Shown: positions 34,150 through 54,268 of the stretch, one piece after another
Position numbering within the stretch: the first letter of the stretch is position 1
Layout of the letters: every line of letters starts with the position of its first letter
Assembly (NCBI GenBank): GCA_963805855.1
Contig: CAWDVW010000002.1
Location: 512,001 to 576,000, forward strand
Source of the DNA: Candidatus Dadabacteria bacterium
GTDB taxonomy: Bacteria > Desulfobacterota_D > UBA1144 > Nemesobacterales > CSP1-2
Length of the DNA: 64,000 bases
Direction: 5' to 3'
Made by a program: the position numbers and the translations under genes
Notes under the pieces: model-generated
The model's database searches: none
Told to the model about the DNA's origin: nothing
The model's input: the letters and a program-made list of their open reading frames with translations, nothing else

Positions 34150-34597
34150 ATAAAATTACTACGATTTCATGAGAGTTTTGTGCTCATAAGTCCTTTTCAA
34201 ATTGAAAAGGACTTAAATGGCATTCCAAACACGATGCAGGATCCAAGATGCACGATTCATGATGCAGGCGAATCAATTTATCCGTTCGCACTGAGTCTAT
34301 CGAAGTGTGAACACCTTGAGTATTCTTTAAATGTAGTGGCGATCTTCCTTCGACACGCCGGACTCAGACTGGTGGCTACCCGTATTAAATGAGCGATAAT
34401 ATCACTGGGTAGGTCACGAGTCCCTTCGGTGTTGCTCAGGGCAGGCTTGCTCGTGACATTCGGCAGCGTTCTGACCTGACTTGCTCTCCGGAGTTCTCTC
34501 CCCTTTAGATGAAGCGGGACGTGGGCGGAGTCTGTTCTAAGAAGCTTCGCCAGAATATAACTAGGAATAATGGTAATCTCTTTCCCACGGTTGTATA

Positions 34598-51913: not shown

Positions 51914-52705
51914 TTATTTGCACTCATGAGTGGACTCCTTCGCCAATTTTATAGCGCTATCTAGTCCTTTTTGGAAATAATCAAAATGCTCATCTAAAAA
52001 ATCGAGATATGCTTTTCTCTTTGTTATTAGTTCTTCTATACTTTCTGGCTTATCGGGCCTATATTTTTCAAGTATTAACATGAAATATTGTGTGAATGAC
52101 CCAATTATATGGTCAACAACGTTTCTCAAACCCTCACTATACTTGGCTTCAATCTCTTTCAGTTTGGTATCGTTTAGTTGCTTAAGAGACTTGAAATTTT
52201 CATTGCTTACAATGTCCGGCCCTTTATTTTGTATCGCCCTAATGACGGATTGGAAATCTAATTTTTTTATTTTCAATTCAAAGGCTAAATACAAAAAGTG
52301 GGCTAATCTATCCCAAGCACTAGCTAACAATCGAATCCCATAATCAATATTGTACCAAAACATAAAATCATCATAAGTTTGTTGATTCGTATGCTTAAAA
52401 TCACATGTAAGCGGTAAAAAATATTCAGCTGATGAAATAGAAACCGCAATAGTCAAGCGAATGTGTCTTATCTCCTCATAAACGTAATCAATTCTATACT
52501 TTTCAGTTACTTCAAATGGGTGCTGACCCGATAATTGAGGAAGTGGCTTACCCTCAGCTAGGTATACCACTTTCTCTAATTCTGCTTGTTTATCTCTCGT
52601 TTTTTGTATTGCTTCAAAATAAGACTGTGTAAAATTAGTCGAATCAGAGAGTAACCCCGGATATTTTTGCTCTAGTATGTTGAAAATAGCACTACTGTAT
52701 TTCAT
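51914..52705 (-). CDS. Putative HEPN-domain protein (Cthe_2314-like)
   Basis: Helical AT-rich ORF with SAWDRLAHFL and the RxxxxH motif RNVVDH. Start overlaps the upstream stop by 4 bp. Confidence 0.55.
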   Translation of the reverse strand: MKYSSAIFNILEQKYPGLLSDSTNFTQSYFEAIQKTRDKQAELEKVVYLAEGKPLPQLSGQHPFEVTEKYRIDYVYEEIRHIRLTIAVSISSAEYFLPLTCDFKHTNQQTYDDFMFWYNIDYGIRLLASAWDRLAHFLYLAFELKIKKLDFQSVIRAIQNKGPDIVSNENFKSLKQLNDTKLKEIEAKYSEGLRNVVDHIIGSFTQYFMLILEKYRPDKPESIEELITKRKAYLDFLDEHFDYFQKGLDSAIKLAKESTHECK

Positions 52706-53703
52706 TTATTCCTAATATTAATTAGGTTGACAATAACCTTAATTATTGTTTCTTTCTCTTCGGGTTTACTGACCGCAATCATGAGTGTAAGAGCGACTAA
52801 TGCATTATCTGCAATACGCTTTGTACCATCATCTCTGTAAAGCAAGCCATTTTTTTCTAAGAACCAAATAAAGATAAAGGCGGCTATTCTCTTATTGCCA
52901 TCAACAAAAGAATGGTTTTTTACAATAAAATAAAGCAAATTAGCCGCTTTTTCTTCGATACTGGGATAGAGTTCGCGGCCATCAAAGGTTTGGTATATAG
53001 TGTCCAAAGAACTTCTGAAGGATTGATCTTTCTCTTTGCCAAATAGTTCGGATGCGCTGTAAGTTCCTCTTAGTCTATTTATTGCCTGGATCGCCTCTTC
53101 ATATTTAATACTGAATCTTTCTCTTCTTTCCGTATCCTTAATTTCCAGTTTTTGATGATCATATTTGTCTAATACGTCGAAGGCATAACTATAATCGTTA
53201 ATTAAATTTATGAGTGCTAAGGCCTCATCTGAACTCTAGTGCTTTTTGATCTGAAACAGTTCCTATAAGTCTTATTGTATTTTTTAAGTCTTCTAATTGA
53301 CTTTCCTTTTCTCTCAGCCGTCTTTCGTTTAATGAATAGCCCTTAACGAGATGGTCTCTTAACACATTTGTTGTCCAGATTCGAAATTGAGTACCTCGTT
53401 GGGATTTTACTCTGTAACCTACGGAAATTATTACATCTAAGTTGTAATGAATCTATATCTCTCTTTATTGTTCTTCCACCTTCTCTTTGAACTGTTGCAA
53501 ATTTTGCAACAGTTGAACTTTGATCTAATTCTCCCTCCGCAAATATATTGCGAACATGTCTAGATACCACGGACTTATACTCTTTGAAATAACTCGACCA
53601 TCTGGCTAAGAGAAAGCCATGCAGTATCTTGCTGGAGATTAACTTCAAGCTTCGTTTCCCCATCTTCGGTTTGATATATAACTACCTCAGATTTATTTTC
53701 CAT
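52702..53703 (-). CDS. RhuM-Fic/DOC fusion protein, three +1 frameshifts
   Basis: MENKSEVVIYQTEDG, WLSLSQMVELF, SRHVRNIFAEGEL, YNLDVIISVGYRVKS.RGTQFRIW and the Fic motif HSFVDGNKRIA. About 332 aa after removing three single-base insertions. Confidence 0.85.
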
Positions 53704-53719
53704 GGTTGAATATTCTTTC

Positions 53720-53851
53720 AACTATCGAAAAATACGCGACAGTTGAGTTTATTTCAGTTATTGCAAAATTTGCAACAGTTGGATCTTTCCGAGTTGTTCG
53801 ATATCTTCGAACAGTTCAATTCGTTCACTTGTCTGGAAATTCCGGACAACT
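53720..53851. repeat. Array of four 25-nt variant palindromes (period 36/36/35 bp) homologous to the intragenic palindrome at 53490-53514
   Basis: AACTATCGAAAAATACGCGACAGTT, AGTTATTGCAAAATTTGCAACAGTT, AGTTGTTCGATATCTTCGAACAGTT and ACTTGTCTGGAAATTCCGGACAACT. Confidence 0.8.
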
Positions 53852-54268
53852 CATTTTGTTGAGATATTTTTCCTAACTTCCTATTTTGGGATAAGCGTCA
53901 AAAGTTATTCAAATATTATAATATTTGAGCGTGCTTTGTGCTAGTTTTTGAAATTTAGCGTCCCTATTGGATACAGTCCTGCAAAATCTGTCGCTGTATC
54001 TCCCTTCTATTATAGAAGCAGTTTCTCTTGAGAAGTATATTTAGAGCTTAATGTTTTACTCGTCCGTGAACTATTACATATAAGATGTATGATTCGGAAC
54101 GAAACAAAATTACAAGAAGTAAGTGAACGTAATGGCCTTATCGTTTTTGATATAATTGGCACCAATACCAAAACATTCCTTAGTGACAATTCGACCAGGT
54201 TATTTGATACATTAAAAAGGGATTATTTGGCCTTCCAAAAATTGCGTCAAGAAAATGAAAATTGCGAT

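Follow-up and report, generated by a model that had tools for sequence, protein, structure and literature searches.

The window analysed here is a stretch of 64,000 nucleotides (nt) of Candidatus Dadabacteria bacterium (GenBank assembly GCA_963805855.1, contig CAWDVW010000002.1, positions 512,001 to 576,000 of the forward strand; window coordinates count from its first letter). It contains a RhuM-Doc (RhuM-Fic) gene, i.e., a member of a family of candidate Doc-type toxin and defence genes, with a perfect 25-nt palindrome among its codons and four less perfect 25-nt units ahead of its start. We find that a 25-nt dyad in the codons of RhuM-Fic/RhuM and phage-associated Bro-N genes is kept by selection and that the palindrome sequence dictates the eight residues it encodes. 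This family-wide coding palindrome is apparently a previously undescribed cis-element; the literature searched (supplements not covered) gave no description of a palindrome embedded in RhuM or Bro-N coding sequence. We tentatively read the dyad as a putative operator of the protein's own N-terminal domain and the upstream units as extra or relic copies, a reading to which we assign a little less than an even chance.

The palindrome in the RhuM-Doc gene

The following features of the window are central to the argument.

52702..53703, minus strand: RhuM-Doc (RhuM-Fic) gene, ATG at 53703, stop at 52702
53490..53514, no strand: coding palindrome, plus-strand sequence AACTGTTGCAAA-T-TTTGCAACAGTT, perfect (12+1+12)
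53541..53576, minus strand: codons of the presumed recognition helix, translation KSVVSRHVRNIF, 'SR' class before the conserved His
53720..53744, no strand: upstream unit U1, nearest to the ATG at 53703, decayed (8/12 pairs), GTCGCA-class core
53756..53780, no strand: upstream unit U2, core GTTGCA as in the gene itself, 266 base pairs (bp) from the coding copy
53792..53816, no strand: upstream unit U3, core GTTCGA, the class of TVR(K/N)(Y/F)RTV alleles, 22/25 identical to the coding copy of locus L108
53827..53851, no strand: upstream unit U4, core GTCCGG, near the CCGG/TCGG cores of (T/V)IR(K/N)FRI(V/T) alleles

The sequence confirms the perfect palindrome at 53490-53514 that an initial annotation, made from the letters of the window, had pointed out: on the minus strand it provides the codons for (S)TVAKFATV, with GTTGCA as its inner core. 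The genome holds 2 perfect 25-nt palindromes in 3,114,175 bases, with 11/12 pairs at 20 further sites. To score family members, we built a covariance model, R1, from 73 coding palindromes. The coding copy reaches 37 bits with R1 (E 1e-7) and, folded as DNA, an energy of -10.6 kcal/mol (z -4.1). Together with U2 it forms the two best R1 sites genome-wide, and no further family copies were found in the genome. The identical 25 nt occur in the loci L018, L089, L103 and L115 as well as in upstream unit b of locus L120.

Two side observations concern the same site. The other perfect palindrome of the genome lies at 34189-34213 (AGTCCTTTTCAAATTGAAAAGGACT) and scores 17.5 bits with R1. Furthermore, contigs from public sequencing runs tend to stop at the coding palindrome (53481-53517), and within these samples its 31-mers recur in different flanking contexts, of which one reads as another RhuM gene (ELQRNS-TVAKFATV-QVEGNRK). 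That is, the palindrome is common to several loci, such that metagenome assembly graphs break there.

Conservation across the RhuM-Fic family

In all 156 RhuM-Fic loci mapped from two collections, the same 25-nt position is palindromic, with diverse sequences. The genome collection comprises 80 loci, of which 4 were unmapped (R1 later located the site in three of those). Here, at least 9/12 pairs are found within 3 nt of the motif in 74/76 mapped loci and at least 10 in 68, while the palindrome of the two remaining loci is shifted by 5-8 nt from the motif. In an independent metagenome set (n=80), all 80 loci show at least 8/12 pairs, 79 at least 9 and 66 at least 10. Control windows from the same genes reach 10 or more pairs in 1/1520 cases. 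Over both collections, the coding copies of 134/156 loci keep 10-12 of 12 pairs, although divergence is saturated and changed amino acids are the price. The cores are diverse and include, among others, TGCAAA, TCAAGGA, CCGAGGA, TCCGGAA, TTCGAAA and GTTCCAT; within the NVQKMHIA subfamily, the palindrome is one base out of codon register.

We then compared pairing and covariation with shuffled data. Among 73 sequences, 84.7% of the paired cells are complementary, compared to 58.6% after shuffling and 27-39% when the partner is slid, given an alignment whose centre was set to the best palindrome within 3 nt, a choice that slightly favours pairing. Changes on both sides are observed at 13/14 pairs, and the covariation score of 0.686 (0.205 for shuffled data) is reached by 0/500 shuffles. 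The effect is also visible at third codon positions, i.e., the respective pairs of 78 distinct palindromes are complementary in 100% (b7-b19), 98.7% (b10-b16), 98.7% (b1-b25) and 75.6% (b4-b22) of the cases, while synonymous recoding of the same peptides yields only 27-35%. Since third-base pairing is far above the recoded expectation, the constraint acts on nucleotides and not on the protein.

G-U pairs are nearly absent from the stem (about 8 among about 860 paired cells), which argues for a DNA-type dyad. Mismatches count 7 for G-T and 18-20 for A-C; we dropped this asymmetry as a strand test because codon constraints bias the counts and render it uninformative. A search of Rfam with the palindrome element returned nothing at E<=1. 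That is, covariation as in structured RNA families is present, but G-U pairs are scarce and no curated family matches.

The covariation of the eight residues fits the register of the palindrome (TV..TV, VV..TT, TI..IV, VI..IT), and so do the further pairings it predicts (A..A, R..R, K..L as well as K/N-F and E/D-S). The peptide varies between homologs because the nucleotide palindrome is kept family-wide. The initial annotation had stated that this segment varies between RhuM homologs in such a way and proposed to check whether its codons are palindromic and hypervariable; the statement was right, the cause of the variation is the family-wide palindrome, and both properties are seen in the 156 loci. 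For sequence analysis in general this is a caution, i.e., a 'hypervariable, covarying' peptide can be shaped by DNA symmetry and not by protein structure.

Anatomy of the site

The KSVVSRHVRNIF segment is presumed to be the recognition helix, given its sequence pattern and a weak profile match to Bro-N. For 142 distinct sequences (6 skipped), we defined helix classes by the two residues that precede its conserved His. The inner core has an entropy of 3.53 bits, which drops to 0.84 bits once the helix class is known, compared to 2.71 bits given the class of the downstream wing/tail. Respective pairings are GTTGCA with 'SR' (32/32), ACCGAG with 'GL' (9/9) and GTCAAG with 'SL' (7/7). For the outer-arm triplet, the entropy of 2.01 bits is reduced to 0.42 by the downstream class and to 1.07 by the helix. 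That is, the inner core travels with the upstream helix and both outer arms with the downstream segment, which in turn implies that the left arm is re-matched to the right one after an exchange.

Within helix classes, the information peaks at positions -7..-3 and +3..+7 with 1.6-2.0 bits. The A/T-rich central 5 bases are looser, the outer arms are weaker still, and the signal is low past position 12. The inner hexamers are invariant within a helix class and about 10 bp apart, i.e., about one helical turn. Half-sites so spaced have the geometry of a dyad operator that a dimer contacts from one side of the double helix, and the palindrome has the shape of such an operator: symmetry, conserved half-sites about one turn apart and a variable centre.

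The protein segment downstream of the palindrome is a mosaic. We define this wing as the stretch from the motif to YNLD, an anchor that is recognisable in 142/156 loci. The N- and C-terminal flanks both reach 72% identity or more in 38 locus pairs; in 12 of these, the identity of the wing segments is below 45%, where the classes swapped are xxDGK, QxEGxR, TQHG, xSDKP and others. For L063 vs L072, identity continues through the palindrome and ends in its 3' arm, while L087 and L098 differ by the exchange of a block of about 270 nt that comprises helix, palindrome and wing. A wing difference of this kind also separates the window gene from P0002, its closest homolog.

A second family with a coding palindrome

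Next to the RhuM-Fic gene of locus L008 lies a gene for a Bro-N protein (PF02498; PADLOC PDC-S13) with a perfect palindrome in the codons before the DGK turn. From 80 Bro-N relatives of viral contigs, 9 were unmapped and the remainder collapses to 37 distinct palindromes. At least 9/12 pairs are observed in 37/37 and at least 10 in 34 of them, compared to 4/370 and 1/370 for the controls. The codon register differs from that in RhuM, and the palindrome again falls on the part of the protein that varies most.

With regard to the similarity of the two domains, residues 3-123 of RhuM-Fic align to residues 14-152 of Bro-N with an hhalign probability of only 44% (E 2.4e-4). In this profile alignment the DGK turns align and the two palindromes are at most about three codons apart. 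Pfam gave no Bro-N match on RhuM-Fic proteins, and no solved structural relative of the N-terminal region was found by sequence.

Bro-N palindromes or whole Bro-N (PDC-S13) genes were also seen directly upstream of RhuM-Fic in at least 2 loci, with the following Bro-N-type palindrome neighbours.

L112, about 205 nt ahead of the start of RhuM-Fic: Bro-N-type palindrome
L008, 2016-2040: Bro-N-type palindrome

The upstream units of the window

Positions, spacing (period 36/36/35) and peptide readings on both strands of the four upstream units are as originally described, while a proposed fifth, decayed unit at 53854 is neither palindromic nor matched by R1. Tandem Repeats Finder calls period 36 solely over 53705-53781. 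Each unit consists of the palindrome and about 11 nt on its 3' side; these flanks are similar from unit to unit and to that of the coding copy, with unit-gene homology confined to the palindrome and about 5-11 nt to either side. U1-U4 pair at 8-10 of 12 positions. They are divergent, i.e., the mean column identity is 69% in a 12-row alignment that includes the coding copy as well as units of L120 and of the sister species G006.

Within the window, R1 assigns 22.7 bits to U2 (E 0.002), 14.5 to U3 (E 0.46) and 14.0 to U4 (E 0.66), while U1 has no match at E<=10. Thus, U2 alone is individually significant. We consider the other three as real units because of their phased clustering by the gene, their conservation in the sister species and their 21-23/25 identity to coding palindromes of other alleles. 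With up to 2 mismatches allowed, the arm pattern AACTGT-N13-ACAGTT lacks significance by itself: 4 matches are found where 1.93 are expected, and 12/100 shuffles reach 4.

The cores of U1, U3 and U4 go with other helix classes in other genomes; for U1, the core class is clear from the G006 copy. The outer arms of U2 are mismatched (left AACTGT, right ATAACT), and arm chimeras with left AACTGT and right ACAACT are found among array units (U2 and U3 of the window, L106) but almost never among coding copies. Such chimeras fit recombination within the palindrome that is left unrepaired where selection is weak. A possible promoter is located at 54250-54222, such that the array lies between it and the ATG. 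The array is unlike CRISPR or attC arrays: its repeats differ, its spacers are alike and its units measure 25 nt, compared to at least 55 nt for attC.

Upstream copies in other genomes

The sister species G006 shows the same gene order of sigma gene, array, a RhuM remnant of about 35 codons and nth. Its U2 (33.7 bits) and U1 (21.6 bits) are better palindromes than those of the window and its U3 is worse; U4 is nearly unchanged with one central base different. The arrays of the two species are 82% identical, compared to 84% for nth and 91% for the sigma gene. Parts of the array are also found on two more diverged contigs (about 88-89% identical).

Locus L120 has five upstream units with one 36-nt spacing, i.e., units of the types NMQKMHIA, TVAKFATV, TTEFFSVV, TISKMEIV and VCKDFLHT, ahead of a gene of yet another type. 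Its TVAKFATV unit is 25/25 identical to L103, with 100% identity over 36 nt; the TTEFFSVV unit reaches 24/25, as does the TISKMEIV unit, which is followed by 88 nt of RhuM-like coding sequence. One or more heterologous upstream fragments are also present at L106, L129, L143, L147, L149/L150, L157, L092 and P0003. For the window (U2), L125, L035 and L231, an upstream copy has the core of its own gene and is separated from the coding copy by 266-320 bp. Strong palindromes are 3 times denser in the 300 nt upstream of the genes (21 in 43.65 kb, i.e., 0.48 per kb) than elsewhere (104 in 661.9 kb, 0.157 per kb), and about half of those 21 are of the family type.

The expectation that variant arrays recur upstream of homologs thus holds for a minority (e.g., L120) while most loci have none. 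We rejected arrays as a general feature of the family: family-type copies are missing upstream in most of 160 loci, and a scan with R1 over 151 genomes of one class gave only single sites at E<=0.3 and no arrays. A match was found in 45/151 genomes, a tally that includes the unpublished genome G113, on which nothing else depends.

A proposed operator written into the gene of its reader

The initial annotation had offered two readings of the array, namely silent cassettes or a set of operators that are bound by a protein whose own coding segment they resemble. From the sequence data, the second appears to fit best, with Watson-Crick-only pairing, class-invariant half-sites, the association of helix and core, and copies with the gene's own core.

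Autoregulated toxins with palindromic operators are well established. Here, a dimer of the Bro-N-like/winged-helix N-terminal domain would bind the palindrome as its cognate operator, with the helix reading the inner hexamers about 10 bp apart. With the site embedded in the coding DNA of its own reader, both would be inherited as one module. A Doc-type toxin/defence gene could thereby keep a promoter-independent negative autoregulation wherever it lands, either by a roadblock or by looping to a promoter-proximal copy. Upstream copies of the own class (U2) would add looping or roadblock sites. The foreign-class copies U1, U3 and U4 may have arisen when RhuM alleles recombined in or near the palindrome and would then represent relics of allele exchange or cross-regulatory sites.

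Few unexplained genes of defence islands and phages are as common as RhuM and Bro-N, and an element that overrides codon and even amino-acid choice in two such families provides a handle on their control. If it is the protein's own operator, toxin autoregulation would stay attached through horizontal transfer and mosaic recombination, and the family would offer ready-made cognate protein-site pairs of many specificities.

Several observations weigh against a self-encoded operator. Helix and strand were assigned from sequence, and the Bro-N profile match beneath this assignment is weak (see above). Helix and core are only about 45 nt apart, such that their association could be plain linkage. 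Palindromy extends over all 10-12 pairs, i.e., over more than a helix-turn-helix usually reads. On the gene's strand, we found no sigma-70-like promoter that overlaps the array. The scarcity of upstream copies and the single sites of the 151-genome scan count here as well, as does the finding that most existing upstream copies belong to foreign classes. Finally, the units decay differently in the window species and in G006, and the array diverges about as fast as its neighbours, which gives no sign of present constraint.

Intragenic auxiliary operators are known, e.g., lac O2 inside lacZ and gal OI inside galE, and hipBA has four operators. The element shares with them a dyad of about 17-25 bp with half-sites about one turn apart and a loose A/T-rich centre. 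As in lac and gal, the site lies within a coding region, sometimes with a second one a few hundred bp off near the promoter; as in hipBA, four palindromes precede a toxin gene. In contrast to all three, the RhuM site occupies codons of the DNA-binding domain of its own reader, is a putative operator, is found family-wide with changing sequence, forces the residues of a strand and comes in most members without a promoter-side copy.

Alternative explanations

The palindrome could instead act in cis as a structure whatever its sequence, i.e., as DNA cruciform, single-strand hairpin or mRNA hairpin, with the units as leader hairpins and transcription, translation or decay of the toxin message as target. 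Compensatory changes at 13/14 pairs around a loose 5-nt centre are what a stem-loop predicts, the folding energy of the coding copy is low as given above (-6.2 kcal/mol for U1 and U3), and an array between the possible promoter and the ATG may be transcribed. We nevertheless consider this unlikely: outright mismatches outnumber G-U pairs, and A-C mismatches on the sense strand are more frequent than G-T; distant lineages of one helix class share a near-invariant stem, wobble bases included, without compensated drift; and the stems are A/T-rich and only moderately stable, with no match in Rfam.

The silent-cassette reading takes the palindrome as a recombination handle and the units as silent donor cassettes or footprints of exchange. 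Swapping of the wing in frame would diversify the recognition surface of a defence protein. One part of this reading stands, i.e., the wing is indeed swapped and foreign arrays do exist in a minority of loci. The identity breakpoint of L063 vs L072 inside the 3' arm, the outer arms that follow the tail class with a re-matched left arm, the recurrent heterologous pile-ups (L120 with five units, 24-25/25 identical to coding copies of other alleles, L106, L143, L147, L149/L150, L157 and P0003) and the 3-fold upstream enrichment of palindromes all speak for it. But the contigs of four public runs (X1, X2, X4, X5) reveal no joint, inversion or replaced allele at the coding copy, where it has to be considered that contigs drop rare variants. 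As the initial annotation had noted, there is also no obvious recombinase or reverse transcriptase, i.e., no such gene and no integrase among the 14 neighbouring proteins scanned (open reading frames of at least 130 amino acids (aa) within about 10 kb). Furthermore, the homology between units and gene is too short for RecA-type conversion, the units are decaying in both sister species, and most loci have no array. Mosaic alleles are thus found, while joints, a recombinase or long flanking homology, as gene conversion or inversion would leave or need, are not. Overall, this reading is rather unlikely.

Arrays of silent cassettes with segmental gene conversion are known from Borrelia (vlsE/vls) and Neisseria (pilE/pilS). 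The likeness consists in partial, unexpressed, in-frame copies of a hypervariable segment that are stacked upstream and in an expressed segment that is mosaic between strains. Unlike vls and pilS, the RhuM units are palindromic, measure only 25-36 nt and have hardly any homology in their flanks; their arrays are scarce and in decay, and no switching was seen at the locus in the contigs of the four runs.

A further variant of the operator idea is improbable, namely that helix and palindrome form a lock and key and that the arrays are heterologous operator panels which let incoming Bro-N/RhuM proteins switch the resident Doc toxin. If true, a foreign regulator from a phage or mobile element would become the trigger of abortive infection. 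For the three foreign operator classes of the window no resident protein was found, i.e., the source genome (93.8% completeness) shows neither a second RhuM gene nor any Bro-N gene.

It is highly doubtful that the palindrome has no function, being a quasi-palindrome that is kept perfect by template-switch correction in replication, with arrays as debris of local duplication. Template-switch correction of quasi-palindromes is an established mutational process; it yields coupled changes in both arms with Watson-Crick-only pairs and may explain the re-matching of the left arm. However, the non-coding units U1-U4 are imperfect (8-10/12) and drift independently in two species, while coding copies keep 10-12/12 pairs in most loci at a cost in amino acids. 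That there are only two perfect palindromes of this size in the genome excludes a general persistence, and the discrete, widely distributed sequence types argue for sequence-specific selection.

An antitoxin RNA of type III toxin-antitoxin systems, i.e., ToxI-like units processed to 36-nt RNAs that neutralise the Doc toxin, can practically be dismissed: ToxI has 5.5 repeats of 36 nt and the tandem units directly upstream of a toxin gene match this period and place, but they are divergent instead of near-identical, the toxin is Fic/Doc and not a ToxN/AbiQ-type endoribonuclease, most homologs have no array, and the element also lies inside the coding sequence.

Other palindromic elements

Rickettsia palindromic elements sit inside genes, and REP/BIME form arrays. 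Both resemble parts of our findings, i.e., palindromes translated in frame and intergenic clusters of imperfect palindromes, respectively. Unlike those, the RhuM palindrome is no insertion but occupies the homologous position in every member as a single copy per gene, and the genome has no copies of it beyond the coding copy and U2. Baculovirus bro genes lie beside hr regions of repeated imperfect palindromes, such that genes with a Bro-N domain adjoin palindrome arrays there as well. The baculovirus papers found appear to deal with these hr palindromes as a genomic feature; the viruses, their hosts and the palindrome lengths are unrelated to those here.

Identity, frame and neighbourhood of the gene

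The RhuM-Doc protein begins with a Bro-N-like, presumably DNA-binding region, which is followed by the first part of the RhuM domain, and ends in a Fic/Doc domain that carries HSFVDGNKR. Its original identification as RhuM-Fic is well founded, with Pfam profile matches to PF13310 (53270-53494, 75.9 bits) and to PF02661 (52705-53223, E 1e-12), the latter spanning HSFVDGNKR. RhuM is thus combined with a Fic/Doc domain that has a HxFxDGNKR-type motif, as in RhuM-Fic/Doc single-gene defence candidates. The homologs P0002 and P0004 match PADLOC PDC-S23 (E 1e-141 and 1e-145) and NCBIfam DOC_P1. Full-length RhuM-Fic homologs measure 327-340 aa and are very common (7999/8000 scored candidates at E<=0.001); the best of these is 87% identical across a 74-aa query piece of RhuM-Doc.

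With regard to function, RhuM was predicted as a toxin domain in restriction-modification and PrrC neighbourhoods, frequently fused to DOC (PMC3710099). RhuM genes are over-represented beside targets of programmed inversion (PMC9881135). According to a preprint (bioRxiv 10.1101/2024.09.26.614923), phage plating drops about 1000-fold for T7 and T5 and about 10-fold for T4 in the presence of a PDC-S05 (RhuM-domain) gene.

In the window, three +1 frame breaks at about 53579, 53449 and 53237, on which the initial annotation was silent, cut the gene. Contigs that are 99+% identical come from the public salt-marsh metagenome runs X1, X2 and X5; those of X1 and X2 have one base fewer at all three breaks, and X5 contigs have one base fewer at 53449 and 53579 (53237 uncovered), where X1, X2 and X5 possibly include the source sample, possibly stem from one campaign and are not independent. 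The single-base absences suggest that the breaks are assembly errors or strain-specific and that an intact form probably exists, i.e., by coordinate arithmetic, a single frame of about 332 codons.

One further gene directly downstream belongs to the locus.

51914..52705, minus strand: HEPN (Cthe_2314-like) gene, PF18730, E 4.3e-6

Its ATG overlaps the stop of RhuM-Doc (ATGA), such that both are probably co-transcribed. The other neighbours are housekeeping genes (RNase III, glnA, nuo subunits, nth, a sigma-70 factor and asd), and the scan of neighbouring proteins gave no cas or integrase domains.

Some minor observations were made nearby. In G006 (L005 1877-2548), the RhuM remnant consists of the gene start joined to the 'LVQGYSL' region, and a 171-aa open reading frame with a sub-threshold DUF6040 match replaces the Doc and HEPN genes; the interval between nth and the sigma gene is thus a variable islet. 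Ahead of the array, a stretch of some 170 nt (54033-54199; L006 1501-1670) is conserved in G006 and 76% identical in a third species, G005, where it sits upstream of a type I hsdM-like methylase gene instead. It may be a common leader or promoter piece of defence islets. We dropped the idea of a decayed older RhuM fragment at 54050-54100, since the stretch also precedes the hsdM-like gene elsewhere. A sub-threshold Rfam match to 'gltS' falls at 54137-54188 (26 bits, E 0.53).

Further palindromes occur within or next to other RhuM-Fic genes. A subgroup carries a second one of the AACACTTGAAATATTTTCAAATGTT type about 225 nt downstream, in the codons of EKTLEIFSNVV, at the following positions.

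L052, 540-564: second palindrome
L103, 1562-1586: second palindrome
L113, 2645-2669: second palindrome
L115, 2209-2233: second palindrome

Just downstream of the RhuM-Fic gene of L123 (2286-2352), three palindromes of the family type overlap at 21-nt spacing and jointly form one near-palindrome of about 67 nt.

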